Shown in pieces: positions 5,455-31,680 of a stretch of 64,000 nucleotides of DNA. Below the pieces are notes generated by a model. The model did not search any database. It worked only from the letters and a program-made list of their open reading frames with translations, and was not told the origin of the DNA. Both the position numbers and the translations under genes were made by a program. Where the stretch lies: positions 2,745 through 66,744 of the forward strand of contig JAGLTS010000005.1 of assembly GCA_023135165.1 (NCBI GenBank). Direction: 5' to 3'. Source of the stretch: Phycisphaerales bacterium. GTDB lineage: Bacteria; Planctomycetota; Phycisphaerae; Phycisphaerales; JAGLTS01. The first letter of the stretch is position 1, and each line of letters opens with the position of its first letter.

Positions 5455-5480
5455 TAGGAGACGGGGTCGGTAGTCAGCGT

Positions 5481-6212: not shown

Positions 6213-6276
6213 GGTGTTTCTCCTCTGAGAATGTTGTGGGAGGTGTTGCGGGGGCTCGATTCGGTGGTATACTGTA

Positions 6277-6316: not shown

Positions 6317-6353
6317 GGTAAACTCGGATCAGTCAAGCAAAATCGGCAAAAAC

Positions 6354-12604: not shown

Positions 12605-12632
12605 GCAGCCTGTATCTCAAGTCACTCACAAG

Positions 12633-12664
12633 AACCCAGGGAGAATCTTCCCTGGGTTTTTCTT
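12633..12664 (+). terminator. intrinsic terminator of hppA
   Basis: 9-bp stem ACCCAGGGA / TCCCTGGGT, 6-nt loop, followed by TTTTTCTT. Confidence 0.85.
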
Positions 12665-12677
12665 CGTCACCACAGTC

Positions 12678-12952
12678 GTGATGAGATTGCCCATCCGCAC
12701 GCCCACCACACACGAGAGCGCGCCATCTCATCACAGTCAGCACACTTGCCCGGAGAACCTCGCCTTGCCAGGCGAGGCTGTGACGTGCGCGCAGCGGAGG
12801 AAATCCTAACCGAGTTCGTCACACATGAGATTGCATCATCCCATCACAGCCCCGCGTGGCAACGCGGGGTTCGCTTCCTGTGAGCGCACTTGCCCGAAGA
12901 ACCCCGCCTCGCCAAGCGCGGTTGTGATGTGCGCGCAGCGGATCAAACCGAG
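12678..12952. repeat. intergenic repeat region with two ~70-nt direct repeats and embedded hairpins
   Basis: Core 1 (12739-12813) is agcacacttgcccggagaacctcgccttgccaggcgaggctgtgacgtgcgcgcagcggag. Core 2 (12884-12952) is agcgcacttgcccgaagaaccccgcctcgccaagcgcggttgtgatgtgcgcgcagcggat. Hairpins: CCTCGCC-N6-GGCGAGG (12758-12777), CCCCGCG-N6-CGCGGGG (12850-12869), and a 10-bp inverted repeat GTGATGAGAT/ATCTCATCAC (12678-12687 / 12725-12734). Confidence 0.7.
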
Positions 12953-12988: not shown

Positions 12989-13570
12989 TCACGTACCGCT
13001 GAAGAGGCCGGCGAAGCCCATGAAGGCGAGCGACAGGATGCCGGCGATGATCATGTTCAATGCGGTGCCCTTCACCATTGCGGGCACGTTCGACAGCTCG
13101 ACTTCCTCGCGTAGACCCGCCATGAGGACGAGCGCGAGCGTGAACCCGCCGCCCGCACCAACCGCGAAGACCAGCCCCTCGATCACCGAGTAGTCCGCCT
13201 TGGTCTGCGAAATCGCCAGGTACAGGATCGCGCAGTTGGTCGTGATGAGCGGCAGGAAGATGCCCAGCGCGCGGAAGAGCGCCGGGCTGAGCTTTTTGAT
13301 GACCATCTCGACGAACTGCACGGTGCTGGCGATGACGACGATGAAGCTGATGAGGCGCAGGTACGGCGCATATGGCAGGATGAAAGCGTTGAGGAACGAG
13401 ACGCACAACGACGTAATGACCATGACGAAGATCGTCGCCAGGCCGAGGCGGAATGCGGTCTTGAGCCTGCCGGACACGCCGAAGAACGGGCACAGGCCGA
13501 GGAAATAGTACAGCGTGAAGTTGTTGACGAGCATCGCGCTGATGAAGATCCAGACGAGGTTGCTGTTCAT
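12989..13570 (-). CDS. rnfA: Rnf electron transport complex subunit A
   Basis: 193 aa. LVNNFTLYYFLGLCPFFGVS, LGIFLPLITTNCAIL and LSLAFMGFAGL closely follow the RnfA/RsxA pattern. 4-nt overlap with rnfE. Confidence 0.9.
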   Translation of the reverse strand: MNSNLVWIFISAMLVNNFTLYYFLGLCPFFGVSGRLKTAFRLGLATIFVMVITSLCVSFLNAFILPYAPYLRLISFIVVIASTVQFVEMVIKKLSPALFRALGIFLPLITTNCAILYLAISQTKADYSVIEGLVFAVGAGGGFTLALVLMAGLREEVELSNVPAMVKGTALNMIIAGILSLAFMGFAGLFSGT

Positions 13571-14217
13571 GATGCAGCCTCCTCTGAAACGCGGGTTCGC
13601 CTTCTGATCTTTCGTTCACGGAGGAAGCCGAAGAAGAGCAGGATCACGCCGAGCATGATGAACCCACCGGGCGGAAGCACCATGATGACCCACGGCTCGA
13701 AGTGTTCGCCGAAGAGCAAGTGCCCAAAGAGCGAACCCGAGCCGAGGATCTCGCGCGTCGCGCCAAGGCACAGCAGCGCAAACGCAAAGCCCGCCGCCAT
13801 ACCGATCGCATCGGCGACGGCGAGGCGCACGCTGTTCCTGCTCGCAAATGCTTCCTGCCGGCCGAGTATCAGACAGTTCACGACGATCAGCGCGATGAAC
13901 GCACCGAGTTCCTTATGCACGCTCGGCACGGCCGCCTTGAGCGTGAAGTCCGCGACGGTCACGAACGTGGCGATGATGATGATGTACGTGCTGATGCGAA
14001 CCTGCTTGGGAATAAACGACCTTAGCAGCGACACGAGAAAGCTGGACCCGATGAGCACGAACGCCGTCGCCGCGCCCATCGCCACAGCGTTGATCGCGCT
14101 GTTCGTCACGGCAAGCATCGGACACATGCCGAGCACCTGGACGAAGACAGGATTCTCCTTCCAAATGCCCTTGGCGAACTCGCGGTAGAGCCGACCCGGA
14201 TCGGGAGGTGTGTTCAT
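13567..14217 (-). CDS. rnfE: Rnf complex subunit E
   Basis: 216 aa. NPVFVQVLGMCPMLAVTNSAINAVAMG is typical of RnfE/RsxE. 4-nt overlaps on both sides. Confidence 0.9.
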   Translation of the reverse strand: MNTPPDPGRLYREFAKGIWKENPVFVQVLGMCPMLAVTNSAINAVAMGAATAFVLIGSSFLVSLLRSFIPKQVRISTYIIIIATFVTVADFTLKAAVPSVHKELGAFIALIVVNCLILGRQEAFASRNSVRLAVADAIGMAAGFAFALLCLGATREILGSGSLFGHLLFGEHFEPWVIMVLPPGGFIMLGVILLFFGFLRERKIRRRTRVSEEAAS

Positions 14218-14927
14218 CGCTCACCTCCCTGCTGCTCTTGCTCGGGCGCATCCGGTTCAGCCGGCGGCGCGGGGGGTTCTTCACCCGGGGGGGGGAGATC
14301 AGGTAGCCACGCCCCGGTCACCGTGTTGATGATCTTCACAACCGCCAGCGATGAAATCGTCGCACCGGTGATCGCATCAACCTCGTTGTCCGCATCCCGG
14401 CCGTCCTTAACAACGACGATCGGCGGCTCGACGCTGAGCGCCTCGAAGTTCGCCTGGAATGCTGCGTCCTTATAGATCTTGTCGCCCAGCCCGGGCGTCT
14501 CCCGGCTCTCGAGGATCTCCAGGCCGATGACGCACCGGCGAACCGGGTCGTAGCCGTAGAGCAGGCGAATGATGTCCTGGAAGCCCGATCCCGCACCTTC
14601 GATGGCATAGCCGAGAAAATCGCCCGCATCGTCATACGCGCCGTACACCACGGGGTCGGTGACGGGTTCATCACCAGCGACGGGAACGAGCAGGCCGTCA
14701 CGCAGCGCGAGCTTGCGCATTCGCGTCGAGCCGGGCACGACCTTGAACACGGCGGCTTCGAGCGCCCGTGCGTTGTTGGCGTCGATGATCGGTTTGGTGA
14801 TCTGATACGCGCCGGCAATCGCAAAGCCAGACAGCAGCCCCGCGATGCCGAGCGTCAACACGAGGCGCAGGCTGCTCGGCTGGCTGGGTTGCTGCCCTGC
14901 TGAGATGGTGAGCTGGACCTCGGTCAT
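14214..14927 (-). CDS. rnfG: Rnf complex subunit G (FMN-binding)
   Basis: 237 aa. N-terminal TM helix and the FMN-attachment-type motif VDAITGATISS. Pro/Glu-rich C-terminal tail. Confidence 0.85.
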   Translation of the reverse strand: MTEVQLTISAGQQPSQPSSLRLVLTLGIAGLLSGFAIAGAYQITKPIIDANNARALEAAVFKVVPGSTRMRKLALRDGLLVPVAGDEPVTDPVVYGAYDDAGDFLGYAIEGAGSGFQDIIRLLYGYDPVRRCVIGLEILESRETPGLGDKIYKDAAFQANFEALSVEPPIVVVKDGRDADNEVDAITGATISSLAVVKIINTVTGAWLPDLPPPGEEPPAPPAEPDAPEQEQQGGER

Positions 14928-15961
14928 GCCACAGCCCTCCCCCGGCCGAAGGCGCGCGGCTGCGCGATGCGCTCGATCAGCGGCGTCGCGGCGTTCATCA
15001 GGAGGATCGCGTACATCACGCCTTCAGGCAGCCCGCCCCAGATTCGGATGAGCACGACAAGCAGCCCGATGCCCAGGCCGAAGATCCAAGCACCGCGCGG
15101 CGTGATCGGCGATGTCACCGGGTCGGTCGCCATGTACACCGCGCCGAAGAGCAGCCCGCCCGAGCAGAGCATCAGCCAGGGCGACGGGTACTCCGTGCGA
15201 TCGAAGAGCCAGACGATCGTCGAGAAGACGGCGACGGTGCCGAGGATCGAAACAGGGATGCGCCAGTCGAACGTTCGACGGATGGCGAGAATGACGCCGC
15301 AGATGATGATGACGATCGCGCACGTCTCGCCGAGCGAGCCCGCGGTGTTGCCCAGCAGCAGTTGCTCGACGCCGGTCGGGATGTTCTGGAACTTCATGAG
15401 TCCAAGCGGCGTCGCGGCGCTGATCGCATCGACAGCGTCGGCAGCGGGAGCGGGCGCCTGCATGAAGGGCAGCGCGAAGTTGCTGGGACGGATCGTGAGC
15501 AGCTCGGTAATCGCGCCCTGCTGCGTCCACGTCGTGATGGCGGTGGGAAAGGCCGCCTGGAGGAAGGCCCGACCGACGAGCGCCGGGTTGAAGATGTTTT
15601 GGCCGAGTCCGCCGAAGACGAGTTTGCCAAGCCCGACGCCGACCGCGCCGCCGAGGAACGCCATCCACAACGCGATGCCCGGCGGCAGACACAAGCCCAG
15701 GAGCACGCCGGTGAGAATCGTGCTGCCATCTGTGAGCGATCCGCCGCGCCGCCGATCCGGGCCGAACACCCATTCCGTGAGCGCCGCGCCCGCCGTCGCC
15801 GCGACGATGACGAGGATCGCGCTCAGCCCGAAGAAGTACACCGCGGCGAGCACGACCGGCACAAGCGCGATGAGCACATCCACCATGAGGCGAGGCGTTG
15901 TGATACCGCGGCGAAGAAACGGCGCCGATTGCAGAAGCAGTCGTGGATCGCGCCGCGTCAT
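14924..15961 (-). CDS. rnfD: Rnf complex subunit D
   Basis: 345 aa from ATG at 15961, which forms an ATGA overlap with the rnfC stop (15958-15960). Polytopic membrane protein with the RnfD/NqrB-like pattern. The track start at 16069 is an over-extension. Confidence 0.88.
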   Translation of the reverse strand: MTRRDPRLLLQSAPFLRRGITTPRLMVDVLIALVPVVLAAVYFFGLSAILVIVAATAGAALTEWVFGPDRRRGGSLTDGSTILTGVLLGLCLPPGIALWMAFLGGAVGVGLGKLVFGGLGQNIFNPALVGRAFLQAAFPTAITTWTQQGAITELLTIRPSNFALPFMQAPAPAADAVDAISAATPLGLMKFQNIPTGVEQLLLGNTAGSLGETCAIVIIICGVILAIRRTFDWRIPVSILGTVAVFSTIVWLFDRTEYPSPWLMLCSGGLLFGAVYMATDPVTSPITPRGAWIFGLGIGLLVVLIRIWGGLPEGVMYAILLMNAATPLIERIAQPRAFGRGRAVA

Positions 15962-17292
15962 GATTCTTTGGCCTTTCGCGCTCGCATCATCCCTTTCGCA
16001 GCACGGATCAAATGCACGATCGGCACGCCGGATGGGCATGTGTACGTGCACGCGCCACACTCGACGCAATCCATGATGTGCGCCTTCTCAAGCTCATCGT
16101 ACCGACCCGCACTCGCGAGCCTGGCCAAGCGCGAGGGATTCAGGAAGTTGCCGCATGCTTCAAGGCACTGCCCGCAACGCACGCAGGCGTACTCCGCTGT
16201 GTGGTTGATGACATCCTCGGTGAACGCGAGCAGCCCACTTGTTCCCTTGAGCACGGGCACATCGAGCGATGCGAGCGACGTACCCATCATCGGCCCGCCC
16301 ATCACGACCTGCCGCGCCTGCGTGTTCAGCCCGCACCGGCGAAGCACATCGCGCACCGGCGTGCCGATGGGGACGATCAGGTTGGCCGGCCGATCAACGC
16401 CGGGCCCGGCGACGGTCAGCGCCCGCTCGATGACGGGGATGCCCCGGTCGAAGTAGTCCGCCAGCGCCGCCATCGTGCCGACGTTGTTGACGACGATGTT
16501 CAGGTCCAGAGGCAGTTTGCCTGCGGGCACTTCCTCGCCCCAGACCGCCTTGATGAGCATCTTCTCCGCACCCTGGGGGTACTTCACCTTGAGGGGCACG
16601 ATGTCGATGCTGCCCCGATCACCGACAGCCCGCCGAAGGGCCTCGATCGACTCGGGTTTGTTCAGTTCGACGCCGATTGTGGATGAGTCCGCGCCGAGCG
16701 TTTCAGCGAGGATCTCGACGCCGCGGATGATCGCATCCGGCTGTTCGACCATGAGGCGGTGGTCGCAGGTGAGGTAAGGCTCGCATTCGCAGCCGTTGAC
16801 GAGCAGTCGTTCGCAGCGATTACCCTCGGGCAGCTTGTACTTCACGTGCGCCGGAAACGCCGCCCCGCCCATGCCGACGAGGCCGGCCTGTTGAACATGC
16901 GTGATGAACTCATCGAGCGTGAGGGATCGCCAGTCCACCGGCGACGCGGCCGACATGCGTTGTGTTGAAAACGCATCGGCTTGGATTTCGATGGACTGGG
17001 CCATCTGTCCGTTCGGGTGCCTGCGCATCGCGATGGCGGCGACGGTTCCGTCGACGGGGCTGTGCAGCGCCATGGAGACGAAGCCGCCCGGCTCCGCGAT
17101 CAGTTGTCCTCGCGTAACGGTTTCGCCGACGGCGACGACGGACTTGCACGGCGCGCCGAGATGTTGGCTGAGCGGCAGGATGTATCTGTCCACGAAGCCC
17201 ATGCGCTCAAGCGCGAGATCCTCGGTGCCTTCTTTGTGCTCTCGCGGGTGCACGCCGTGCCGGAATGTTCTGCCGAGCACGCCCGCGGTCAT
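15958..17292 (-). CDS. rnfC: Rnf complex subunit C (NADH-binding, 2x[4Fe-4S])
   Basis: 444 aa. GMGGAAFPAHVKY and CVRCGQCLEACGNFL ... CVECGACTYTCPSGVPI. 4-nt overlap with the upstream giant ORF. Confidence 0.9.
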   Translation of the reverse strand: MTAGVLGRTFRHGVHPREHKEGTEDLALERMGFVDRYILPLSQHLGAPCKSVVAVGETVTRGQLIAEPGGFVSMALHSPVDGTVAAIAMRRHPNGQMAQSIEIQADAFSTQRMSAASPVDWRSLTLDEFITHVQQAGLVGMGGAAFPAHVKYKLPEGNRCERLLVNGCECEPYLTCDHRLMVEQPDAIIRGVEILAETLGADSSTIGVELNKPESIEALRRAVGDRGSIDIVPLKVKYPQGAEKMLIKAVWGEEVPAGKLPLDLNIVVNNVGTMAALADYFDRGIPVIERALTVAGPGVDRPANLIVPIGTPVRDVLRRCGLNTQARQVVMGGPMMGTSLASLDVPVLKGTSGLLAFTEDVINHTAEYACVRCGQCLEACGNFLNPSRLARLASAGRYDELEKAHIMDCVECGACTYTCPSGVPIVHLIRAAKGMMRARKAKES

Positions 17293-20200
17293 TCGGCGCC
17301 ACCTTCGCCCTGCTGCGCGGCCACCGGCGCGTAACCGGCCAGCGCCATGAGGCCGCTCGTCACGCGTTGGGCGGCCTGGGCGTCGTACTGCGCACGAAGC
17401 TCGGCGAGTTTCGTCTCGTACTCGCGTTTGAGCGTGGTGATCTCATCCTCGTGCGCCTGCGCCACATCGCGCTGAGCTTGTTCTCGCACGGCTTCCGTGA
17501 ACGGAGTGACGACGCCCGCCAGTTCCTGAAGCGTGCGCCAGAACTCAAGACGCCGTTGCACATCGCGCGCAAGTGTCGGGGCGACGCGCAGCGACATCCG
17601 TTCACCCTCGCGATCGACCGTGATGACCGGCATCGTTGCGACGCGATCATGCACGCTGAGCGAGAGGTAGTCGGTGATCGGCATCGGGGCTGGGTCGTTT
17701 GTCGTCAGCGGACGAAGGTGATCCGAGAAACGCGCTTCGGTGACAGCCCAATGCGCGGGCGTGATCGCAGCGCCGGCGTCGGTGTGCCAGCGTGATGTGA
17801 CATCCGGGTTGGCGGAGAGATCCAGCCGAGCGCCGAACACGCCGTCAGCCGATGGATCGTAGGTGAATAACGGGAACGCGCGCGATGCGACGGCAAGCTC
17901 CGCTTGGGCGATCAAGCGCTCAGGGGCGAAACCGTGGCGCTCCGGGCTGGGCGCATGGATGTGAACGAGCGCCGGACCGGTGAAGGCAAGCGCCCCGAGA
18001 ACGCTCTCGGCGAAATGCGCGCCGTCGGCAGGCGACACCTGCGTCACGAACGCGGTGCGTGAGAGCAACGCGAGCAGGGCGATGTCGAACCTTTCATCGG
18101 ATGCGTATGCGCCGAGCGATTCGACGCGGAGCGCATCATCCGCGCCGCCGCCGATGTCGCTGAGCAGAACGATCTTGATCGGCAGGTCGGTGCTGAGCAG
18201 CCCGATGAGTTGTGACAGGTTCTGACCGGCCAGCGACCGGCTGTCGCCGATGATGAGCATGGGCGGGCAGAGGCTTCGCTCCTCAAACGTGAGGTCGGCA
18301 TATCGCAGGCGCTTGAGGCTGTCAGCCATGCGCGCGGCGCTGTGCGGATCATCCAGTTCAACCTCAGCCCATCGCATGAGTCGCACGCCCGCGATCGCCT
18401 GTTCGAGTTGACCTTCGATCAGACCTCGCGCCAGTTCGCCCGCATCGCCGCCTGCGTCGATGACCACCGGGCTGAAGAACGGGTTGTGAGGGAAGACGCC
18501 CGCCCACGCAGCGACCGAGCCTGAGGCGATTGTGATGCCCGTTCGCGCCCGCCCAGCGCCGGTCGGACCTTGCGTAAGTTGCCAATGCAGGTCGGCCAGG
18601 CCTCGCGCTACTTCCACCAGGCGCGCCAGGCGATCACCATCCACGCGACCGGCTGTGACCGCATCGCCGACGGCGCCGGAGAGCGCCGCGAGATCCACTT
18701 CGCGTTTACCGAGTGATTCAAGCCCACCCGCCAAGGCGTCCAGATCATGCTCGGGAAGCGCGCCCGCAAGCACATCGTGGATGCGATCAGCAAGCTGTTT
18801 CTGCAGCGCTTCGATCCGCTGAAGATGCTCTTGCAGGCGAGGTTGAAGGTGATACTCGGCAGCAGCCATCACATGACGAAGGGCCAGGCGTGCGCCCGAG
18901 CAGGCTTCCGAGCCGTCGCCCGACGCCATCGCGAGCAGGCAGTGGCGCGAGAGCAGCATGGCGGCGAGCGGGCCGACATCGCGGTGCGTGCGAACGCGCT
19001 CGATCGTCGTGCCCGGCGTGTCGGGCAGGCGTTGCCAAAGACTCCACAGACGGCGCTGCATGTGCACAAGCTCGGGCGTCTTCGTGGCAGCACGCAGGCC
19101 TCGCCCCTTGCACGCATCAATGGCAGCGGTCGCGTTCTTGCACGCATCGGGATTGACGAGTAGCGAGAACAGTTCGCCCGTGCCGCGCGAGGCTCGCTCC
19201 GGCTCATCGAAGAAGATCGGCGTCCTCACCACGGGCAACTCGCCGACTTCATTGACGACCGCATCAAGCGCCGGCGCCAGCGTCGCCTTGCGAGGATCAA
19301 CACCGTCCTCTTTGTCCATCAGCGAATCGAATGCAGCGCGGAAAAGCTCGCCGGCTGTGGTCGGCGCGTCGGGGTACGCAGCGAGGATCCTGTTCACACG
19401 CCCAGCGATCTTGCCCGCGATGCTCCCAAGCACATCGACGGGCTTGCCCCTCTCGGACGCCATCGTGATGCCTGCATCAAGAAGCGCGCGGGCGGAGATG
19501 ACGAGCGGCGCGATCGAGCCGTCCGGGCAACTCGTCCATGACCGGCCATCGCCATCGCACGACTGCGGATCGAAGACCGGCAGCATCGCACTCGCATCGC
19601 TCACATCGCGGAACGTCGAGGAAAGGGGCGGAACCGCGCCGGCGGCAAGACACGGGTCGGCTGTGAGCTGGTCCACCTTGCCATCGCGGTAGAGCACGCC
19701 GACCTGATCCCAGAACCGGGGCAGCGATGCGACCGGCATGTCCGAATCGGTCAACTCGCGGACGGCGGGCGGTGCGGATGCCTCGCGCAGCCGGTCGTCA
19801 GCGGGCGGCAAAGGCATGTCGCCGGCTTCCACGCGCGTGATGGACTCGAAGGCAAGGTCGATCACATCGAGACGCCGATCACGCTCGGATTGTGACAGTT
19901 CCGCGAGCGCTTCTTCACGATTCGAGCGGATCTTGGCGGTGGTGATGCTTCCGGGCGCACGCATCGCGCCGTTGACCAGTGAGACAAGCCCTCCGAGCAG
20001 CGCTTCGTTGATATGCGACGCATCGCAATCGGCTGAGATCTGAACGATGTGGATGGCGACTCGACCGTTTGCAGCGTCGTCGCGGAGTTTCGCGGGCAGC
20101 GTGGGCCAAAGCTCATCCGAAGCCTTGTCGCTGACAAGAAGGACCGCGCCGCCATCCACCAGGCGCTGCGTTACCTCCATGCGCGGGTGAATGGCATCGG

Positions 20201-21914: not shown

Positions 21915-22704
21915 CCCACTGGATCGCGCCGGTCGGACAACGATACGTCGCTTCCGGCGCAGCTGGCCCGCCCGCTGCGTAGTCCACGACAGGCAGGTTG
22001 TCCTTCATCTGAATCAACCCCGGCGCCGCATCTTGAGCACATCGGCTGCATCCGTCACACGCGACGCGGCAGATCGCACGGGCCTGCTCACCTTCGAGCG
22101 GGATCTTGCACTGCACGATCAGGCAATGCGAGATCGGCAAGCATTCGAAGAGGTCGCGCGGACAGGCGTCAACACAGTCCCCGCATGCGGTGCATTTGTC
22201 AGGTTCAACGACGGGCAGCCTCTCATCGTTCATGTGGATGGCGTCGAACGTGCACGCGACCATGCAATCGTCGAGGCCGAGGCAGCCCCACGCGCATCCC
22301 TTGCCGCCGCCTCCAATCATGTGCGCCGCCAGACATGTCTTGAAGCCCTCGTACTCGGCGATCTGCCGGGCCTGGCTCAAACCGCCCGCACAATGCAGAC
22401 GCGCCACGCGTTTCTCCTGCTTGCCTGCATCCACGCCGAGGAACGCCGCGATGTATTCGATCCCCTCCGGACTGGAGACGGTGCACGCGCTCGGCGCGTG
22501 CGCGCCGTCGATGACCGTCTCAGCGAAGGCGCGACAGCCCGCCTCGCCACACGCGCCGCAGTTCGAGCCGGGCAACATCTCTTCGATGATGTCGATCCGT
22601 GGATCCTCCTCGACCCGCAGGAAACGGTTCGCCACCGCCAGACCGATCCCGAAGAATACCCCCAGCCCGGTCATGATCGCTGTGGCCAGGAGCAGGGTGA
22701 GCAC
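21853..22704 (-). CDS. rnfB: Rnf complex subunit B (polyferredoxin)
   Basis: 283 aa. N-terminal TM helix, CGACGEAGCRAFAE cluster motif, then several CxxCxxCxxxCP-type motifs (CTACGDCVDACP and others). Confidence 0.88.
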   Translation of the reverse strand: MLTLLLATAIMTGLGVFFGIGLAVANRFLRVEEDPRIDIIEEMLPGSNCGACGEAGCRAFAETVIDGAHAPSACTVSSPEGIEYIAAFLGVDAGKQEKRVARLHCAGGLSQARQIAEYEGFKTCLAAHMIGGGGKGCAWGCLGLDDCMVACTFDAIHMNDERLPVVEPDKCTACGDCVDACPRDLFECLPISHCLIVQCKIPLEGEQARAICRVACDGCSRCAQDAAPGLIQMKDNLPVVDYAAGGPAAPEATYRCPTGAIQWVEFSQFSPRASASVTGANLD

Positions 22705-22748
22705 GATGGGTCCTTTGGTTCACTCGCGTGCGGAGCACGTAGCGGAGG

Positions 22749-25367
22749 TCAGTTAAACGGCTTGGCTCGGGCGATAAGCTCGTCCAGCTTCGGCTCATCG
22801 GGGTTGAGCGGCTTGCCTGGATGGATACATCGGCTGGGACATTTCTCCGCTGCCCGGACGATCTGGTCGAACGTGCCCGCCCGTGCGTCGCCGATGACCG
22901 CCTGCTTGCTCGCGTTGTAGACGAAGACCTGCGGGTTGATATCCATGCAGTCGTTGCAGGTCGTGCAGAGGATGCTGGTGATCCACGGCTCGTCCGGGCC
23001 GTCATCGTCATCCGTTTCGGATTCGGCAGGCGCTTGAGCCTGCTCAGCGTCGTCGGCCTGCGCCTGGGCAGCATCAGGAGAAGCCGGGGCGATCCCCGGG
23101 GCGCCGTACGCCCCGGCCAGCGGCGCGAGCTGATTCACATCGACGCCCAGCAGCGACTGCGCCAGACGCTCCATGACCTCACTCGCCGCTTCGCTTCGCA
23201 CCGTTTCGATCTCGGCTGCGTGCGCCTCCTCAAGCTGTTGGCGCTGAGCTTCCGCCTCCGCCGTGAGGCGTTCCCTCTCCTGCTCAACGGCGGCGCGAAC
23301 ATACTCGCTACGCACACCCGCCAGTTCCTGAAGCGTGCGCCAGTACCTGAGGCGGTCGCGACAGGCAAACGCTAGGCGGCGTGTAATGACGAGGCGGTGG
23401 AGTTGCCCATCACCATCGATCGCCCAGACGTACGGAACTCGCGACAGCGCTTCGTCGGCCGGCAGCGCGAGGTACGCATCAACTGTGATGAACTCGTCGC
23501 CGCAACATGCCGGAGGGATGACGCGGTAGTGATCTCGATAGCGAGGTTCGGCAAGACCGAAGTCAGCGAAGGTGAAGGCAACCGTCATGACCTGCTCTTC
23601 ACCGGCCGGGGTGCGGCAGGGGAGGTCGTAGACGGGCCAGTCCTCGTCCGCTTGGGGGTTGCCTGAGAAATCCAGCCGGCGTGCCCAGGAGGTGCCCGCT
23701 TCGGGGTTGTAGTGGAAGAACGGATGCGCCCGGCCTTCGATGGCGGCTCCGCCGTGGAGGTACGTGCCGAGCGGCGGGTGCTCACCATCCATGAGCAGTC
23801 CAGATGCGGCGACATGCAACGATGTGCGCGTCGCGTCAAGGCTTCGCAGGAAGCCGTCGAGCAGGTGTTCCGGGCGAGCAGCGGAGGATTGATTCACCAG
23901 GGCTTCGCGATGGCTGACGCCCATGTAACCAAGCTCGAAACGGTAGCCCAGCAGCGGATCACCTTCCGATGGGAGTCCGACGTTCATCGCGGCACGAACC
24001 GACACGATCACGTCAATCGGCCGGGCGGAAAGGAGGACTCTTGACAGGCAGAGCATGCCTGAGCCTCCCATGTGCTCGACCGATTCAGTCGCCAGGATGG
24101 GCGGCAGGCTGAGCAGTTCCTCACGCGAGAAGGCTTCCCAGTCGAACGCTTCGAGCAGCGGGTCGTGACGAAGCGGCTCGTAGGCGTTTGCGAGTTCCAG
24201 CTCCGCGACGCGCATCGCGCCGAAGAGCCTCGCATAGTGCTCCGCCACCCGATCAAACACCTCCGCCGCCGCGGCGCAGGCCGCCTCGTCGCCTGCTTGC
24301 CTCCACTCAACGTCGTCCGCAGAACTCTCTGCCGGGGTCCGTTCATGGTGAACCACGATGAGCAGGCTCTGATCCTCGCGCGCCAGGAACTTCTCGAAAA
24401 GCCCGATGCCGTTCACGACGCGCCGGCGACGGTCCGGGTCCATCGGCATGACGCCGCGCGATGGGCCGAGCACGTGCGCCAGCGCCGCGGGATCGACGTG
24501 CGATGCGCCGGCTGTCCCGACCATTCGCAGCATGACACCGACCTGGCGCCCCTCGGGGGTCTTGCCCAACTCGATGAGGAGCAAATCGTGGAGCTTGGTG
24601 CGAAGGTCACTCACCTTGTCGCGCAGCGCAGCACGGCGTGGGATCGCGCGGTGCCGGGCAGCGTGCAGGAACAGGTGCAGGGGTGCGTGCATGCCAAGGG
24701 CGAGTAGCCGCCCTCCCCGGGGCATTGCATCCTGGAGCCTCGCTAGGTCATCACGCAGTTGCCCGGCGCCTTCCTCGCTGAGGGCCAGCTCATCGACGGT
24801 GCTTTGCCCCGCCTGATCGATCGCCTCCGAGGCGCTGACGGGCGCATCGACGCTCCTGATCGCTTCCCGCACGTGTCTTTCGAGCCGGTGGAGGTTGTCC
24901 TTGAGGATGCGGGCATCCTCCGATTCCGGCGCCATGCGATCGACGACTTCACTGAGCAAATCGGACAGGGGAATGAACAGCCGATCGTCCTCCACCGAAT
25001 CCAGCGGCCGAAGAAAAAGCGGGTACTCATGCCGAACAGCACCGGCATCGCGAAAAGGATGCAGCAGAGCCGGGATGCAATCATCACCTGGCGTCCGGAG
25101 CGCACCGGCTTCACCCGGATCACCTCGATGGAACCGCCGAATGGCGTGGAGGCATTCGGCGACCTGCTTTTCCGAGACATCCGCGGGAGGCGTGGGCAGG
25201 ACGGGCAGGACGCTCCGCACGCCGGCTCGCTCGGCACGATCTCGCATCGTGTCGGCCCAGTCCGAGAGCGTGTCATCAGGCCCCTCAGCCGGCGGGATCA
25301 TCTCGCCCTGGACGAGTTCGCCGGCTGCATCGCTGGCCGTCGCCGTGCTTTCGTCAGTGTTCTGCAT
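22749..25367 (-). CDS. large hypothetical protein: unknown N-terminal half + degenerate PFOR-domain-VI-like core + coiled coil + C-terminal single-cluster ferredoxin domain
   Basis: 872 aa. ATG at 25367 follows AGGAA, 9 nt after the korB stop. HPFFHYNPEAGTSWARRLDFSGNPQADEDWP resembles the PFOR C-terminal region. YWRTLQELAGV is shared with the 1541-aa ORF. The C-terminus ILCTTCNDCMDINPQVF ... AAEKCPSRCIHPG is ferredoxin-like. Confidence 0.75.
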   Translation of the reverse strand: MQNTDESTATASDAAGELVQGEMIPPAEGPDDTLSDWADTMRDRAERAGVRSVLPVLPTPPADVSEKQVAECLHAIRRFHRGDPGEAGALRTPGDDCIPALLHPFRDAGAVRHEYPLFLRPLDSVEDDRLFIPLSDLLSEVVDRMAPESEDARILKDNLHRLERHVREAIRSVDAPVSASEAIDQAGQSTVDELALSEEGAGQLRDDLARLQDAMPRGGRLLALGMHAPLHLFLHAARHRAIPRRAALRDKVSDLRTKLHDLLLIELGKTPEGRQVGVMLRMVGTAGASHVDPAALAHVLGPSRGVMPMDPDRRRRVVNGIGLFEKFLAREDQSLLIVVHHERTPAESSADDVEWRQAGDEAACAAAAEVFDRVAEHYARLFGAMRVAELELANAYEPLRHDPLLEAFDWEAFSREELLSLPPILATESVEHMGGSGMLCLSRVLLSARPIDVIVSVRAAMNVGLPSEGDPLLGYRFELGYMGVSHREALVNQSSAARPEHLLDGFLRSLDATRTSLHVAASGLLMDGEHPPLGTYLHGGAAIEGRAHPFFHYNPEAGTSWARRLDFSGNPQADEDWPVYDLPCRTPAGEEQVMTVAFTFADFGLAEPRYRDHYRVIPPACCGDEFITVDAYLALPADEALSRVPYVWAIDGDGQLHRLVITRRLAFACRDRLRYWRTLQELAGVRSEYVRAAVEQERERLTAEAEAQRQQLEEAHAAEIETVRSEAASEVMERLAQSLLGVDVNQLAPLAGAYGAPGIAPASPDAAQAQADDAEQAQAPAESETDDDDGPDEPWITSILCTTCNDCMDINPQVFVYNASKQAVIGDARAGTFDQIVRAAEKCPSRCIHPGKPLNPDEPKLDELIARAKPFN

Positions 25368-25376
25368 GGTTTCCTA

Positions 25377-26330
25377 TCAGATCGCGAAACGATCGAGTTC
25401 CCGATTGAGCCCGGCGATTCTCTCCTCGGTCGTCATCTCCATCCCGATTGTCGTGACCTGTTCGTACCTGGGCCGACTCTCATTCTGGAAGAAGATGCCG
25501 ATGGGGAGCAAATCCTCCCGGCCGGCGAGGGCGACGGCCTCGTTGTGATTCAGCGGGTCGTGCGCCATCTGATGCTCGTACATCCCCGCCACCGCAGGAT
25601 CCAGTTGGATGCCGTTCTCGTGATTGAGCAGAAGGATCGTCGACGGGTCCTGCTGCATCGCCTCGTAGATCTTCGCGGTGTACTGCGGACAACGCTGGTG
25701 GATGTGGACGAAGCTGAATCCCTTGTGCTTGAACGCGGCATCGAGCGTCGCATGCAGGTGAACGGGGTTCCAATCGACGGTCTTGGCGACAAATGAAACA
25801 TTGGTGAAGCCGAGCGTGGCGAGCGTGGGGTTGAGCGGGGGCAACCACGCGCCGAAGGGGTGGGTGTTGGTCCGCTGACCGGGCCTGCTCGTCGGAGAGG
25901 TTTGCGCCTTGGTCAGGCCGTAGATGTTGTTGTCGAACAGCATCACGGTCATGTCCATGTTGTAGCGTACGGCGTGCAGCCAGTGCCCGGCGCCGATGGA
26001 GCAGCAGTCGCCGTCTCCGGTGGCGACCCACACATGCAGATCCGGGCGTCGCGCCTTGACGCCACAGGCCACGGGAAGCGCCCTCCCGTGCAGGCCGTGA
26101 AACCCGTAGGTCTTCATGTAGTGCGGGAATCGACTCGAACAGCCGATGCCGGAGACGATGATTGTCTTCTCAGGCAGAAGTTGCTCGTCGCGGCAGATCC
26201 GCTGCACGGCGGCGAGGACGGCATGATCCCCACAACCGGGGCACCACCGCGCGATCGCGCCCTCGTAGTCCTCAAGCGTGAAGTAACGGGGGAGAACATC
26301 CAACGACCAGTCTTTTTTTAGCCCGAACAT
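25377..26330 (-). CDS. korB: 2-oxoacid (2-oxoglutarate):ferredoxin oxidoreductase beta subunit
   Basis: 317 aa. WCPGCGDH, GIGCSSRF, and an intact ThDP motif GDGDCCSIGAGHWLHAVRYNMDMTVMLFDNNIYGLT. Confidence 0.88.
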   Translation of the reverse strand: MFGLKKDWSLDVLPRYFTLEDYEGAIARWCPGCGDHAVLAAVQRICRDEQLLPEKTIIVSGIGCSSRFPHYMKTYGFHGLHGRALPVACGVKARRPDLHVWVATGDGDCCSIGAGHWLHAVRYNMDMTVMLFDNNIYGLTKAQTSPTSRPGQRTNTHPFGAWLPPLNPTLATLGFTNVSFVAKTVDWNPVHLHATLDAAFKHKGFSFVHIHQRCPQYTAKIYEAMQQDPSTILLLNHENGIQLDPAVAGMYEHQMAHDPLNHNEAVALAGREDLLPIGIFFQNESRPRYEQVTTIGMEMTTEERIAGLNRELDRFAI

Positions 26331-28270
26331 GATTCGCTCCCCATCGCAGCTTCGACCGGCTGCGGCTCGTTCCCAGTGAGGCCCATACCGTGCAGCCGAT
26401 CCATGATGACTTCATGGATCTGCCCCGGCCGCAAGGGTAGGCCCTGGCAGATGGACCAGTAGTCAATGTCGCGCCTCGTCCTGCCTCGCAACATCAGGGC
26501 GAGATGCGGCGGCCGACCGGGCTGCGTCTCCATCATCAGCCCGTGCTGCGGGTCGCTGTAGTTCAGCTCAATCGTCATCACCTTGTCGAACCGCATGAAG
26601 ATGTCGCGCAGGCCCGGTTCGAGAGGCCAAAGGAAGCGTATGTGCAGCGAAGAGACGCGATACCCGTCCGCACGCGCCCGATCGACCGCCTCCTCGATTG
26701 AGCCGAGCGTCGAGCCCCAGCCGACGACGATCAGATCGCCTTCGTCGTCCCCGTGGATCTTCGGCGGCTTGAGCGTGGCCCGCAGTGCGGCGAGCTTGCG
26801 GCTGCGCATCTCCAGGCCCTTGATGTTCGATGCGGGGTCGTAGGCGACTTTGCTCTGACCGGTGTGCGCCAGGCCCGTCAGGACGTACTCGCCGCCGCGC
26901 TGACCTGGGATCGGCCGGGGCGAAAGACCCGTCTCTTCATCCCAGTCGTACGGCGGGACGCCCTGCTTCCACGGCGACTGATCGACCGGCGGCGCGAGCC
27001 ATTCCTCGCACGGCTCGGGCCTGGGAATCGGCTGAACGCCCGTCGCCAACCCGGCGTCGGTCAGCACGATGACCGGCGTGCGGAAGGCCTCGGCAATCGT
27101 CCGTGCGGTGATGATCAGATGGAAGCACTCCTCGATCGTGGCGGCGGCGATGATCGGTTTGGGCGAATCCCCCGGCGAGCCGTACATCGCTGCCATGAGG
27201 TCGCCCTGCTCGGGCTTGGTGGGCAGGCCGGTCGAAGGGCCGCCACGCTGCACATCCACGATGACCAACGGAATCTCTCCCATGACTGCCAGACCGATGA
27301 ACTCCATCTTCAGCGCCAACCCCGGGCCGGAAGTGATCGTGCATGCCGTCTTCCCCGCGTAGGAGCAGCCGATCGCGAATCCGACAGCGGCGATCTCATC
27401 CTCCGCCTGGTGGACGAACCCGCCCACGCTCTGAATGGATGCCGCCAAGTAGTGCGAAGCGCTCGTGGCGGGCGTGATGGGGTACATCGACACCATCTCG
27501 ATGCCCGCAGCCATGACGCCCAGGCCGACCGCCTGGTTCCCGTTCATCACGAGCAGTTCGTGATCCACATCCATGCAAGGAACGTTGAAGCAGTACGTGA
27601 GACGCTCACGCGCGAACTCGACGCCCGCCTGCATGAGCTTCTGATTCAACGAAATGACCTGCTCGCCCTTCTTGCTGAAGATCGCAGCGATCTCCCCCAG
27701 CGTCATCTCAACATCGCGCTGATAAATCCAGCAGAGCATGCCGAGCACGAACATGTTTTTGCCGAGTTTCGGGTTCTCGGTGTGCGCCAGACATGCCTCT
27801 TCCATCGCCAGTTCATGGACGACGAAACCGCGGTCATGGAAATCCGCGACGCCATCCGCGTACGCCTGACGTATCTGTGGCGATGGATCGTTCGCCCACT
27901 TGTTCTCAAGCAAGACGACCGTGCCTTCGTGGTAGGCGCCCTGCCCGATTCGGCCGTAGAGCACCTGCTCGTTGAAGGCGACGACAAGGTCGGCTGCATC
28001 ACCCATGTTGGTGATTTCGTGATCGCCGAGTCGGATGCGGATGCCGCTGGCCCCGTCGCGGGATCGGGAAGGCGGCTTGATTTCAGCGGGAATGATCTCA
28101 ACGGTCCACGCGCCGTTTCCCATCTTGGCGCTGACGGTGCCGAACGTGACACCGCACTTCTGCGCGCCCTCGCCGGAGTCGCTGACAATCTCGACGATGT
28201 GTTCGTGAACCATCGTCGAGTGTTCATCGCGCGGTGCGCCGGGGTGCGAGTTACCGTCTTGTTTGGCCAT
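26318..28270 (-). CDS. korA: 2-oxoacid (2-oxoglutarate):ferredoxin oxidoreductase alpha subunit (gamma-alpha fusion type)
   Basis: About 650 aa from ATG at 28270 (GGAGAG 7 nt upstream; the track start at 28285 is a TTG). SDSGEGAQKCG gamma-type N-terminus and the pyrimidine-binding region YPITPATSASHYL. Confidence 0.88.
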   Translation of the reverse strand: MAKQDGNSHPGAPRDEHSTMVHEHIVEIVSDSGEGAQKCGVTFGTVSAKMGNGAWTVEIIPAEIKPPSRSRDGASGIRIRLGDHEITNMGDAADLVVAFNEQVLYGRIGQGAYHEGTVVLLENKWANDPSPQIRQAYADGVADFHDRGFVVHELAMEEACLAHTENPKLGKNMFVLGMLCWIYQRDVEMTLGEIAAIFSKKGEQVISLNQKLMQAGVEFARERLTYCFNVPCMDVDHELLVMNGNQAVGLGVMAAGIEMVSMYPITPATSASHYLAASIQSVGGFVHQAEDEIAAVGFAIGCSYAGKTACTITSGPGLALKMEFIGLAVMGEIPLVIVDVQRGGPSTGLPTKPEQGDLMAAMYGSPGDSPKPIIAAATIEECFHLIITARTIAEAFRTPVIVLTDAGLATGVQPIPRPEPCEEWLAPPVDQSPWKQGVPPYDWDEETGLSPRPIPGQRGGEYVLTGLAHTGQSKVAYDPASNIKGLEMRSRKLAALRATLKPPKIHGDDEGDLIVVGWGSTLGSIEEAVDRARADGYRVSSLHIRFLWPLEPGLRDIFMRFDKVMTIELNYSDPQHGLMMETQPGRPPHLALMLRGRTRRDIDYWSICQGLPLRPGQIHEVIMDRLHGMGLTGNEPQPVEAAMGSESCSG

Positions 28271-28631
28271 TGGAACGCTCTCCAAGTGAGAAGAGACACG
28301 GGTCGATTCGCCTTGCGCTGGTTTCAGAACCGCATACCAGCCGCTGGATGAGAATCGGCCAATAACTCAGTTGTCGTGAGCTTGTCCGGGCAGGCGCCTC
28401 GACAAAGGAGCGGAGCTTGAACAGACACATCACGCCGCCTCGATCGCCCGGTTTCGCGGCGCCTCGGAGCGAGCGACAAACGAGCGTTGTACTTCAACCG
28501 CAGCACGCCCGCCAGTGGTTAGACGTAAGGGAAGACACACAAATGTGAAGAGCGCCAATCGGCGGACGACGCATACGGCACAGCCGCATCCTGAATGGAA
28601 CGGCTGACGTGCCTGTGTTATCAGCCCTTGG

Positions 28632-30680: not shown

Positions 30681-31421
30681 TCAGTTGCTTCCGGTCGGCG
30701 GGAAGCGGATCTCGTTGCCGTCGTCGGTGTAGAAGACGACGCCGCTGATCGTCATCGCCAGCCCGCCGCTCTGGTCAGGTTCCATCTCAAGGACCGCGTA
30801 ACCGGTCCCTTGCGAGAACTGAACCATGGCCGGAGTGAGAACCACCTGGGTGCCCGGCTGCTGTCCGAACATCGCCAGCCCGGCGCGCTGCCTTGCCTGG
30901 TCGGTCAGGTCGATGCCGCAACTGTAGTAGTCGCCGTACTCGCCATTCAGCTCTTGACCGAATGCGATGATCTGCTCGTCGGTGACGTTTGCGCGCACGT
31001 TCGGCGAGAGCACCTGACGGGCACCGGCCACATCACCTGACATGGCGGCCTGGATGAACTGCCCACCCGTCTCGTACATGCCCCGCATCACAAGCCAGCC
31101 GAACCAGATAACGAGGCACCACCCGATCGTGATGAGCAGGCCCAGGATGATCCCAGCCGCGGCGATGCCCTTGCCCTTGCGCCGGCCCCTCGACGCACCG
31201 ATCGTCAGGAAAGCGACGATCCCAAGGAAGATGCCGATCACCTGCAGAACGATCGGACAACAGAAGATGAGCGAGCAGACAACCGAGGCGATGGCGAGCT
31301 TGCTCGTGCGGGGCGGCCCCTGAACCGCGTCGAGCGGCGCGGCGTCGGGCTGCCAAGGCTCGAACGGAACATCTTGCTGGTAGGGGTTCTTGCTCATGCC
31401 GGGCATGATACGGCGTCGCAC
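30681..31421 (-). CDS. DUF4190-like membrane protein
   Basis: Two TM helices (LAIASVVCSLIFCCPIVLQVIGIFLGIVAFL, AAAGIILGLLITIGWCLVIWF) followed by a soluble domain. Start ambiguous: ATG at 31421, 31406 or 31397. Confidence 0.6.
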   Translation of the reverse strand: MRRRIMPGMSKNPYQQDVPFEPWQPDAAPLDAVQGPPRTSKLAIASVVCSLIFCCPIVLQVIGIFLGIVAFLTIGASRGRRKGKGIAAAGIILGLLITIGWCLVIWFGWLVMRGMYETGGQFIQAAMSGDVAGARQVLSPNVRANVTDEQIIAFGQELNGEYGDYYSCGIDLTDQARQRAGLAMFGQQPGTQVVLTPAMVQFSQGTGYAVLEMEPDQSGGLAMTISGVVFYTDDGNEIRFPPTGSN

Positions 31422-31560
31422 GGCATGGCGTCAGCCTCACATGGGACACGACGAGCATCGTCCGGCCGCATCGACCCGGCGGCTCAGTTGTCAGCGGCTC
31501 ACCATTGACTTGGGGATCTGCTGCGCGTACGTTGATGGTATCGAGCCGGTGCTCGATGTC

Positions 31561-31644
31561 GGCCGTGTGCCAGAGTGGACTAATGGGGCGGATTGCAAAT
31601 CCGCTGGGCTTTGCCCGTCGTGGGTTCGAATCCCACCGCGGCCT
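31561..31644 (+). tRNA. tRNA-Cys (anticodon GCA) with a long, class-II-like variable arm
   Basis: Manual cloverleaf. Acceptor GGCCGTG/CGCGGCC. D-arm CCA(G)..(A)TGG with GG in the loop. Anticodon stem GCGGA/TCCGC with loop TTGCAAA. 15-nt variable region TGGGCTTTGCCCGTC (GGGC/GCCC stem). T-arm GTGGG-TTCGAAT-CCCAC. Discriminator T. No encoded CCA. Confidence 0.8.
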
Positions 31645-31680
31645 TTCCGATGCTCGATTCGGGGGATAGACCCTGAGCGG

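Follow-up and report, generated by a model that had tools for sequence, protein, structure and literature searches.

The 64,000-nucleotide stretch of DNA analysed here (the window; metagenome-assembled genome of a Phycisphaerales bacterium, Planctomycetota, assembly GCA_023135165.1, contig JAGLTS010000005.1, positions 2,745 to 66,744 of the forward strand) carries a ten-gene unit in which genes for a two-subunit 2-oxoacid:ferredoxin oxidoreductase (OFOR; korA and korB) and for a complete set of Rnf subunits are combined with genes for two large proteins, an 872-residue protein (p872) and one of about 1520 residues (the giant), both descended from pyruvate:ferredoxin oxidoreductase (PFOR). This gene content, its synteny across genomes, the PFOR descent of the two large proteins, their loss of catalytic ligands and the presence of a tethered ferredoxin are established below. 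From them we infer a physical complex, together with its electron path, substrate and direction: on balance we lean towards a Kor-ferredoxin-Rnf module, built on pseudo-PFOR scaffolds, that would work as a reversible, ion-coupled 2-oxoacid:NAD+ oxidoreductase. The parts are of known kinds (Rnf, OFOR and the PFOR fold), while no earlier description seems to exist of the architecture or of the two pseudoenzyme families.

The ten open reading frames (ORFs) run on the minus strand from 28285 down to 12989 in the order korA, korB, p872, rnfB, giant and rnfC-D-G-E-A (Table 1). They are separated by overlaps of 4-13 nt or gaps of no more than 44 nt, the widest lying between p872 and rnfB. An earlier reading of the letters alone (the original prediction) had described this operon, and the ORF table reproduced all ten of its coordinates as well as its junctions: five ATGA-type 4-nt overlaps (rnfE/rnfA, rnfG/rnfE, rnfD/rnfG, rnfC/rnfD and giant/rnfC), a 13-nt overlap of korA and korB, and a 9-nt spacer between korB and p872, TAGGAAACC, with AGGAA inside it. 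The longest ORF of the giant opens at a TTG at 21914, encodes 1541 aa and overlaps rnfB by 62 nt. A second TTG, at 21860, is most likely the true start, as judged from the sequence: GGGAG stands 6 nt upstream, the resulting 1523-aa protein is 100% identical to the public annotation P0001 and has an N-terminus that fits the family consensus MxSF, and the end of rnfB is overlapped by just 8 nt. Similarly, the longest rnfD ORF reaches up to 16069, and a Pfam match that begins at residue 47 agrees with the ATG at 15961. Separate promoters and terminators splitting the unit, which had been raised as grounds for doubting it, were not apparent. Sigma-70 and intrinsic-terminator scans, which are uninformative for a planctomycete, found promoter-like and terminator-like sites inside the unit at a frequency not above that of shuffled sequence. 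These scans gave no sign of a split operon, and the ten genes are predicted to be one transcription unit.

Pfam matched the giant in PFOR domains I and II only; neither Pfam nor NCBIfam had a match in its C-terminal 1100 residues, for which profile-profile and fold comparisons were required. A profile of 15 family members proved collinear with the Moorella PFOR structure 6cin (E 1.7e-58), matching in order segments 4-350 (domains I/II), 480-735 (III-V) and 948-1106 (VI). An AlphaFold model of residues 441-1541 (predicted local distance difference test score, pLDDT, 80; predicted template modelling score, pTM, 0.80) matched PFOR in Foldseek with E 8e-25, the gamma subunit with a template modelling (TM) score of 0.69 (PorC) and the beta subunit with a TM score of 0.64. 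The closest intact relatives are long PFORs of ~1480 aa (P0161, P0162), which have insertions and part of a C-terminal extension in common with the giant. The PFOR relationship that had been predicted for both large proteins was thus borne out by profiles and Foldseek for the giant, and it extends to p872 as described below.

Alignment with P0161, P0162 and 6cin shows what the giant family has lost. The substrate Thr loop YPITPST of the long PFORs has become ASFPA, and the ThDP (thiamine diphosphate)-activating Glu, found in EGEH in active relatives, lies in a sequence changed to EGPR or ESAR; the window giant has Pro107 in place of this Glu, followed by Arg108, which is invariant in the 15-sequence family alignment. 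The diphosphate/Mg motif GGDG...DTQVYSNTGGQ (also given as GGDG...YSNTGGQ) is replaced in the family by VGxx...SDLDLGL and in the window giant by IGDSRS...LSDIGGG. All aligned members have lost the Cys residues of the proximal cluster, with GDGACTGCGEK changed to GDGAEAGSGAK, STGCSS to APGSVA and YTPCQ to HAPSP. Family-wide, then, the giant has neither the GDG-X(25-30)-N signature nor the domain I Glu with which a catalytic PFOR binds and activates ThDP, and it lacks the four domain VI Cys of the proximal [4Fe-4S] cluster; its score against TIGR02176 is 115, where the cut-off is 911. Replacement of every one of these ligands across the family argues that the giant is a PFOR-derived pseudoenzyme, predicted to have no ThDP chemistry and to retain the PFOR fold. 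Public databases nevertheless name such proteins (P0003, P0006, P0011, P0096, P0111 and others, including those from Ca. Kentrum) 'pyruvate-ferredoxin/flavodoxin oxidoreductase' or 'Pyruvate:ferredoxin oxidoreductase'; in the Kentrum copy, P0111, the ThDP and proximal-cluster ligands are absent, as in the other aligned members.

The two domain-V clusters have had a different history. Among 81 giant-like ORFs in the loci surveyed below, both domain-V motifs are present in 70 pseudo-PFORs and neither in the 10 of Phycisphaerales type; the last of the 81 is an active long PFOR, and one more active copy fell under the cut-off of that scan. The window giant resembles the 10, having retained only C786/C796 and C925/C935 at these positions. 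In most lineages the giant could therefore still hold two clusters, and in the window's clade it is predicted to hold none. Because that clade has lost the giant's clusters and kept both the protein and the operon, the role that makes the giant indispensable would be structural. The possibility that Phycisphaerales RnfB had gained clusters to offset these losses was ruled out, as ~20 Cys are conserved in RnfB of all clades.

p872 is related to the C-terminal half of the giant. Residues 88-735 of p872 align with residues 773-1536 of the giant in hhalign (probability 100, E 2.6e-46), BLASTP between the two gives 6e-26, and an AlphaFold2 (AF2) model of p872 (pLDDT 80.4, pTM 0.71) has PFOR (6cin) and PorB (9bt4_C) as its top Foldseek matches. 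In the family alignment p872 lacks a GDG motif, and outside the ferredoxin none of its Cys is conserved. Its long helix aligns in hhalign with a paralogous helix that spans residues 1471-1525 in the giant model, and is a candidate coiled coil or spacer in the p872 model. An exhaustive profile search with p872 reached 1324 50%-identity clusters at E<=1e-30, giants and long PFORs included. Among the top 150 representatives are at least a dozen long p872 forms (1300-1565 aa) that have PFOR domain II at the N-terminus as well as the C-terminal ferredoxin, and one locus (L088) has a 1368-aa long form at 2293-6399 in the slot korB-X-rnfB-giant-rnfC, next to a giant of just 1278 aa. The homology to the giant's C-terminal half and the long forms in the same slot argue that p872 is a truncated second pseudo-PFOR; as far as sequences can tell, the two large proteins are paralogues that both descend from a long-form PFOR.

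Beyond the helix, p872 carries the small domain that accounts for its public annotation, which is 'ferredoxin' and nothing more. This 83-residue domain, modelled with pLDDT 71-91, matches Fer4_13 with a score of 28.8 (cut-off 24.5); the one other Pfam/NCBIfam match to p872, MobP3 at E 0.0028, was judged spurious. C801, C804, C807 and C843-P844 are invariant in 24 sequences, and at least one CxxCxxC is kept in every p872 orthologue from the loci. In the 20 scorable orthologues the low-complexity, acidic composition of the linker, a spacing of 108-126 aa from the conserved WRTLQELAG motif to the ferredoxin, and a tail of 72-74 aa are all conserved. With a linker modelled as disordered and invariant Cys in the domain beyond it, the tethered ferredoxin that the original prediction had imagined is indeed encoded, and it is p872 that carries it.

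KorA and KorB have the composition expected of a two-subunit OFOR: an alpha subunit with gamma, domain I and domain II parts, and a beta subunit bearing a single [4Fe-4S] cluster and a ThDP motif. KorA scores 500 against TIGR03710 (cut-off 482.75), and its best solved relative is the alpha subunit of Magnetococcus marinus 2-oxoglutarate:ferredoxin oxidoreductase (OGOR; 6n2n_A, E 4.6e-85 over residues 29-588). In KorB the motifs WCPGCG, GIGCS, GDGD...DNN and RCP fall opposite their counterparts in 5b46_B and 6n2n_B (E 2e-49), with four Cys at the cluster-ligand positions of solved OFORs. The intact GDG...NN motif claimed for korB thus holds, and the subunit is apparently catalytically intact; 2-oxoglutarate would be the most likely substrate of KorAB. 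OFORs of the two-subunit class have one cluster and no ferredoxin domain, and require an external ferredoxin. With KorB apparently intact and carrying just one cluster, such a ferredoxin would be needed here too.

The unit encodes all six Rnf subunits (A, B, C, D, E and G), with the cofactor motifs expected of Rnf. RnfC scores 501.8 against TIGR01945 (cut-off 245.95) and has two CxxCxxCxxxC motifs, RnfD scores 313.9 against TIGR01946 (207), and RnfE scores 242.6 against NF009070 (184), with a further NCBIfam match at 228.9 (213.4). RnfB passes TIGR01944 narrowly (70.3 against 68.7) and also matches models of long RnfB; it has a hydrophobic N-terminus and 22 Cys. RnfA lies just below its cut-off (TIGR01943, 222.9 against 229.3) and RnfG below its own (TIGR01947, 85.9 against 102), both with clear Pfam matches. 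By eye, RnfD has SAAT in place of the usual SGAT. RnfCDGEA and RnfB are predicted to make up a complete ion-translocating ferredoxin:NAD+ oxidoreductase, and KorAB and Rnf both look functional.

Conservation was surveyed by scanning one genome per species (185,579 species genomes) and fetching 80 loci, in which ORFs were assigned by best hit to the ten window proteins and ordered by stop coordinate. A relative of the giant, conserved in full length at 38-59% identity, is encoded in 262 of the species genomes, which belong to several phyla. At loci with enough flank to be evaluated, the giant is immediately preceded by korA-korB-p872-rnfB in 48 of 56 and immediately followed by rnfC-D-G-E-A in 41 of 56, as the original prediction would have it: homologues of the two large proteins usually occur with rnf and kor. 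Of 45 loci, 31 have all ten genes in exactly this order, and several more depart from it by insertions alone. Carriers include Phycisphaerales, Sedimenticolaceae, Chromatiaceae, Ca. Thiodiazotropha, Woeseiaceae, Thiohalomonadaceae, Acidobacteriota, Myxococcota and Eisenbacteria, with many sulfur-oxidising Gammaproteobacteria among those that have the gene order. The same layout emerges from independent gene calls in Ca. Thiodiazotropha, in a 3.2-Mb genome and in a complete Phycisphaerales chromosome. Recurrence of one order in dozens of genomes from several phyla argues that the arrangement is not due to chance.

Some parts of the unit hold together more firmly than others. rnfB and the giant are the most persistent pair across loci, and at L016 the giant and p872 are adjacent even in the absence of kor and rnf. 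Thiorhodococcus minor DSM 11518 has the order rnfB-giant-rnfDGEA. Median identity to the window proteins across loci is 58-76% for Rnf and Kor subunits and ~42% for the giant and p872, a contrast that suggests horizontal spread of the whole module with looser constraint on the scaffolds. Two loci contain active-looking long PFORs with GDG...YSNTGGQ, TGCS/TGCT and both ferredoxin motifs. One, in Eisenbacteria (L081, 3967-9063), lies inside the cluster between p872 and rnfB; the other, in Pseudomonadales (L022, 21672-26880), lies just after rnfA beside a second copy of rnfB. Their position suggests that the long-PFOR lineage partnered RnfB before degenerating. In many gammaproteobacterial carriers, korA is directly preceded by genes for a flavoprotein resembling fumarate reductase or L-aspartate oxidase (for example L003, 470-3349, whose best NCBIfam match, TfrA, is below cut-off) and for a NuoF-like NADH-binding protein (matches in L021, L023, L025, L026, L029, L050-L053, L061, L063, L064 and L077). 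The pair, which is absent from the window, makes a cluster of twelve genes, and it hints at a reductive tricarboxylic acid (rTCA) branch leading from C4 to C5 in those Gammaproteobacteria.

Two further proteins were noted in the fetched loci. A Thiomargarita-related contig (L086, 10632-12746) encodes an unusual 704-aa fusion of an RnfD/NqrB-family membrane domain with NuoF-like Complex1_51K and NADH_4Fe-4S domains, and a 2Fe-2S/4Fe-4S protein comes after it. P0161 itself (L085, 10001-14434) represents an apparently active PFOR subfamily of ~1480 aa with an insertion of ~130 residues between the domain-V cluster motifs and a C-terminal extension; its neighbours are hydrogenase maturation genes, FeoAB and an ADP-forming acetyl-CoA synthetase-like gene.

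How might such a module work? PFOR is an obligate homodimer. The giant and p872 being paralogues of this enzyme, we propose that they form a heterodimer in place of the ancestral homodimer, joined through their domain-VI-like cores and C-terminal helices. The pair would bind RnfB and position KorAB, serving as a cytoplasmic docking platform. The [4Fe-4S] ferredoxin of p872, on its arm of ~48 residues, would then shuttle single electrons between the KorB cluster and the clusters of RnfB, and in most lineages the two domain-V clusters of the giant would also take part. The net reaction would be 2-oxoglutarate + CoA + NAD+ <-> succinyl-CoA + CO2 + NADH, coupled to Na+ or H+ translocation with no free ferredoxin pool. 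Direction would differ by organism: energy-conserving oxidation is plausible in anaerobic Phycisphaerales, and sulfur-oxidising autotrophs could plausibly use the ion gradient to drive reductive carboxylation. Sequence alone does not give the direction, and oxidation in Phycisphaerales is as plausible as a reductive branch elsewhere. We suggest tentatively, granting it rather less than an even chance, that the ten genes specify a bioenergetic supercomplex, an ion-pumping or ion-driven 2-oxoglutarate:NAD+ oxidoreductase in which Rnf is hard-wired to an OFOR by a pseudo-PFOR heterodimer and a swinging-arm ferredoxin, an arrangement that would keep low-potential electrons out of the soluble ferredoxin pool altogether; sulfur-oxidising autotrophs and symbionts would use the complex in reverse, as a membrane-potential-driven 2-oxoglutarate synthase under microoxic conditions.

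Several observations weigh against this proposal and have to be set beside it. The whole basis for the proposed contacts consists of gene data and single-chain models. The giant of the window's clade, devoid of Fe-S ligands, could serve there as a scaffold and not as an electron wire; of the 'scaffolds or electron-wire adaptors' originally envisaged, the non-catalytic character therefore stands, as the ligands are lost, and the wire falls away for this giant. The substrate of KorAB, too, is putative: KorB scores 235 against TIGR02177, below the cut-off of 261.9, and resembles the broad-specificity Sulfolobus OFOR as well as it does OGOR. In tubeworm symbionts (L050, L051, L053 and L055) korA-korB-p872-rnfB-giant occurs with no rnfCDGEA within 10 kb downstream, which argues that the rnfB-like gene travels with the PFOR-derived genes and not with the Rnf core, and in Beggiatoaceae, Kentron and Thiosymbion the giant is found alone or with rnfB only, the Kentron copy (L089) being alone in its contig. 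Finally, the former active site of the giant retains strongly conserved motifs (GGDGAE.GSG, HAPSP.RHGF and GTGHEAYH), which could mean ligand binding or a new activity beyond a structural part.

Some of these observations would be expected if the genes were merely co-regulated. Pathway partners that do not bind one another are often grouped in operons, and p872 could be no more than a big ferredoxin, dedicated to one pathway and diffusing from KorAB to Rnf and back, with the giant in a separate role such as assembly, stability, oxygen protection or regulation of either KorAB or Rnf. That several lineages have broken synteny and kept the genes, and that the tubeworm symbionts hold their five-gene part away from rnfCDGEA, would fit such a scheme. 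A diffusing ferredoxin would, however, have no need of an 800-residue body and a conserved flexible tether. Moreover, the PFOR-derived genes are interleaved with rnfB and rnfC and not appended to them, rnfB and the giant overlap at their junction, and the rnfB-giant and giant-p872 pairs outlast dispersal of the rest. We regard co-regulation as a real, if lesser, possibility, at perhaps the level of a serious minority view. A scheme in which the PFOR-derived pair and RnfB form an all-purpose adaptor that feeds electrons into Rnf, or into some other NAD(H)-linked partner, with KorAB as one client of several and adjacent for regulation, accounts for rnfB-giant pairs that lack korAB in Beggiatoaceae, Thiosymbion and Thiorhodococcus minor, for the active long PFORs beside rnfB copies in L022 and L081, and for the NuoF-like and fumarate-reductase-like proteins just upstream of korA in many Gammaproteobacteria. 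It sits poorly with the position of korAB directly upstream of p872 in most evaluable loci and with the 9 nt between korB and p872 in the window, and we think it improbable.

The conserved motifs raise the question of whether the large proteins are still enzymes or ligand binders, taking up CoA or succinyl-CoA through the gamma-like domain III, channelling substrate between themselves and KorAB, or sensing 2-oxoacids or CoA esters allosterically. The domain III (gamma) fold is retained, as the match to PorC indicates, and the loops of the former active site contain residues that do not vary across phyla (R108, H170, H174, G999, D1000, E1003, H1320, P1322, S1323, P1324, H1327, G1328 and F1329). 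Set against this, every known residue that binds ThDP/Mg2+, activates ThDP or ligates the proximal cluster is replaced family-wide, the giant and p872 are evolving faster than the catalytic subunits (the identity medians given above), and p872 in this lineage is without domains I-IV altogether. Such an activity seems unlikely to us, less so than the adaptor scheme. The loss of catalytic motifs might also be taken to mean that the large ORFs are functionless relics of PFOR, pseudogenes in the making. We give this practically no credence: the frames are intact over 1523 and 872 codons with a third-codon-position GC content (GC3) of 0.75, like that of neighbouring genes, the giant is conserved in full length throughout its 262 species genomes with many invariant residues and confident models, and the p872 search gathered 1324 clusters, giants and long PFORs among them. 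Decay into pseudogenes is excluded by this conservation. The module of KorAB, tethered ferredoxin and Rnf on a pseudo-PFOR platform is the reading that we retain.

In the usual picture, Rnf takes its electrons from a pool of free ferredoxin. If the proposal is true, an Rnf equipped with a dehydrogenase module and a tethered ferredoxin of its own would represent a new way of handling low-potential electrons, and it would bear on how microaerobic autotrophs can supply reductive carboxylation with reduced ferredoxin and yet not lose it to oxygen. The module occurs in symbionts of tubeworms and lucinids, in Ca. Thiosymbion, Sedimenticolaceae, Woeseiaceae, giant sulfur bacteria and marine Phycisphaerae, and conclusions on carbon fixation and nitrogen assimilation in these carriers are affected by which way 2-oxoglutarate conversion runs and how it is coupled. 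Since giants of ~1500 aa are labelled PFOR and yet lack every residue for ThDP catalysis, counts of 'PFOR copies' in symbionts, for example Kentron (PMC6593406), may include a protein that is not an enzyme. In addition, two large uncharacterised families are here traced to one enzyme ancestor with intermediates extant, a clear case of the passage from enzyme to scaffold.

Table 1. Features of the ten-gene unit, its borders and nearby genes (window coordinates)
Feature	Coordinates	Strand	Basis or remark
korA, alpha subunit of two-subunit OFOR, fused to a gamma domain	26318-28285	-	Pfam POR, POR_N, PFOR_II; exact start uncertain
korB, ThDP- and [4Fe-4S]-binding beta subunit	25377-26330	-	Pfam TPP_enzyme_C, PFO_beta_C
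p872, 872 aa: domain V remnant, domain VI, family-specific C-terminal extension, tethered ferredoxin	22749-25367	-	hhalign, BLASTP, model
p872 residues 688-741, single 54-residue helix	23145-23306	-	DSSP on model; after conserved WRTLQELAG
p872 residues 742-789, disordered Ala/Pro/Glu/Asp-rich linker (tether)	23001-23144	-	pLDDT <50
p872 residues 790-872, single-cluster ferredoxin, C801-x2-C804-x2-C807 ... C843-P, plus C847	22752-23000	-	Pfam Fer4_13
rnfB, membrane-anchored polyferredoxin: N-terminal transmembrane helix, FeS domain, ferredoxin-like repeats	21853-22704	-	PF04060, Fer4 families
giant, full-length PFOR-derived putative pseudoenzyme, domains I-VI and C-terminal extension	17289-21914	-	Pfam POR_N, PFOR_II
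giant residues 103-430, PFOR domains I and II	20625-21608	-	Pfam
giant residues 786-935, domain-V ferredoxin remnant	19110-19559	-	each CxxCxxCxxxC down to first and last Cys
giant residues 1223-1262, degenerate diphosphate-binding motif	18129-18248	-	alignment with P0161, P0162, 6cin
rnfC, NADH- and flavin mononucleotide (FMN)-binding, two [4Fe-4S] motifs	15958-17292	-	RnfC_N, Complex1_51K, SLBB
rnfD, membrane subunit	14924-15961	-	PF03116 at 1.2e-107
rnfG, FMN-binding, flavinylation motif TGAT at residue 187	14214-14927	-	FMN_bind
rnfE, membrane subunit	13567-14217	-	PF02508
rnfA, membrane subunit	12989-13570	-	PF02508
leader, presumed promoter and 5' leader	28286-28631	-	~350 nt non-coding 5' of korA; no ORF of coding-like composition
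inverted repeat, likely bidirectional terminator at 3' end of unit	12621-12670	.	between convergent rnfA and H+-PPase; arms 22 nt
icd	2898-4184		nearby gene
H+-PPase (ion-pumping pyrophosphatase)	9857-12604		convergent with rnfA
aconitase (acnA)	38595-41459		nearby gene
mdh/ldh-family gene	43893-44885		nearby gene

The borders of the unit and its surroundings are listed with it in Table 1. No sigma-70 consensus was found in the leader, the host being a planctomycete. At the other end, a terminator-like site (12639-12651) falls within the inverted repeat that follows rnfA. The remainder of this intergenic region contains a 68-nt direct repeat (12736-12803 and 12880-12947; 84% identical, 144 nt apart) accompanied by a 31-nt inverted repeat (12842-12872 / 12899-12929). 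The core 22-mer of the direct repeat occurs at just two sites in the window (0.03 expected by chance) and has no Rfam match. Rfam at gathering thresholds returned one tRNA only, and nothing in the leader or the repeat-bearing region. The longest ORF of an MMPL-family gene (31390-33936) contains this tRNA gene (31561-31644, plus strand, 54.9 bits) in its 5' part, which argues that the MMPL-family gene starts further downstream. The icd, acnA, mdh and ion-pumping pyrophosphatase genes that the original prediction had placed nearby are present, the mdh gene being assigned to the mdh/ldh family. Elsewhere the window encodes a 918-aa xanthine-dehydrogenase-family molybdoenzyme with fused 2Fe-2S domains (45049-47805, minus strand) and a 746-aa protein that has weak 4Fe-4S dicluster matches only (55936-58176, plus strand).

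The architecture had not been recognised as a described system, and a search of full-text literature, with much subscription literature outside its reach, found piecemeal mentions and no description of the module. For Kentron and other symbionts, Seah et al. (2019, PMC6593406) give PFOR (in multiple copies), Kor and Rnf as separate items. A dimeric korAB apart from the rTCA cluster is reported for the Escarpia symbiont (Rubin-Blum et al. 2019, PMC6315080), and in Ca. Endoriftia persephone a 'PFOR-like' protein and a dimeric korAB(3), marked as of unknown function, go down together under sulfide limitation (Mitchell et al. 2024, PMC11636981). Since tubeworm-symbiont loci contain the five-gene unit, the Endoriftia and Escarpia genes are probably the same as those described here, the Endoriftia protein being a putative orthologue of the giant. 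In those two papers they are treated as enzyme isoforms of unknown direction, with the pseudoenzyme nature, the tethered ferredoxin and the link to rnf absent from the account.

The Rnf complexes of Acetobacterium woodii, Clostridium tetanomorphum and Azotobacter vinelandii have the same six subunits with the expected domains, and clostridial-type rnf operons have the same rnfCDGEA core order; the window also has a long polyferredoxin RnfB and the RnfG flavinylation motif. Canonical Rnf takes its electrons from free ferredoxin. Compared with it, rnfB in the window has moved upstream, a 4.6-kb pseudo-PFOR gene stands between rnfB and rnfC, and the unit also holds an OFOR and a second PFOR-derived protein with its tethered ferredoxin. 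The original prediction was right about the split of rnfB from rnfC and too strict in saying that canonical rnf operons contain only the six subunits, because rnf operons with extra genes are known elsewhere. The rnf cluster of Methanosarcina acetivorans contains a multihaem cytochrome c gene, and in Desulfovibrio dhcA lies upstream of rnf. These are precedents for lineage-specific accessory redox proteins in or beside rnf operons. Those accessories are small periplasmic or membrane cytochromes, whereas the proteins here are cytoplasmic, PFOR-derived, 870 and 1520 aa long, and accompanied by a complete 2-oxoacid oxidoreductase.

With respect to PFOR itself (Desulfovibrio africanus 1b0p, Moorella thermoacetica 6cin), the giant is collinear through domains I-VI and has the same fold, and its insertions and C-terminal extension are common to the active long form (~1480 aa; P0161, P0162). 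It differs in that the family has lost the ThDP-activating Glu, GDG...N and the four proximal Cys, and the window's clade the domain-V clusters as well, so that it is not a PFOR enzyme. KorA and KorB, in contrast, align over nearly their full lengths with the Magnetococcus marinus enzyme (MmOGOR, 6n2n) and keep its cofactor ligands. In Thauera aromatica, a KorAB-ferredoxin-benzoyl-CoA-reductase cluster dedicates KorAB to one ferredoxin and one consumer. This is a precedent for the arrangement proposed here, in which an 800-residue pseudo-PFOR body carries the ferredoxin in the same polypeptide and Rnf would be the consumer. A more distant parallel is offered by the 2-oxoacid dehydrogenase complexes, whose E2 components bear lipoyl swinging arms on Ala/Pro-rich linkers. 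By analogy, p872 may be seen as a small carrier held on a large scaffold by a disordered Ala/Pro/acidic linker, again in a 2-oxoacid system. There is no sequence relationship between the two, and unlike the E2 arm the p872 carrier is a [4Fe-4S] ferredoxin that would convey electrons only and no acyl groups.

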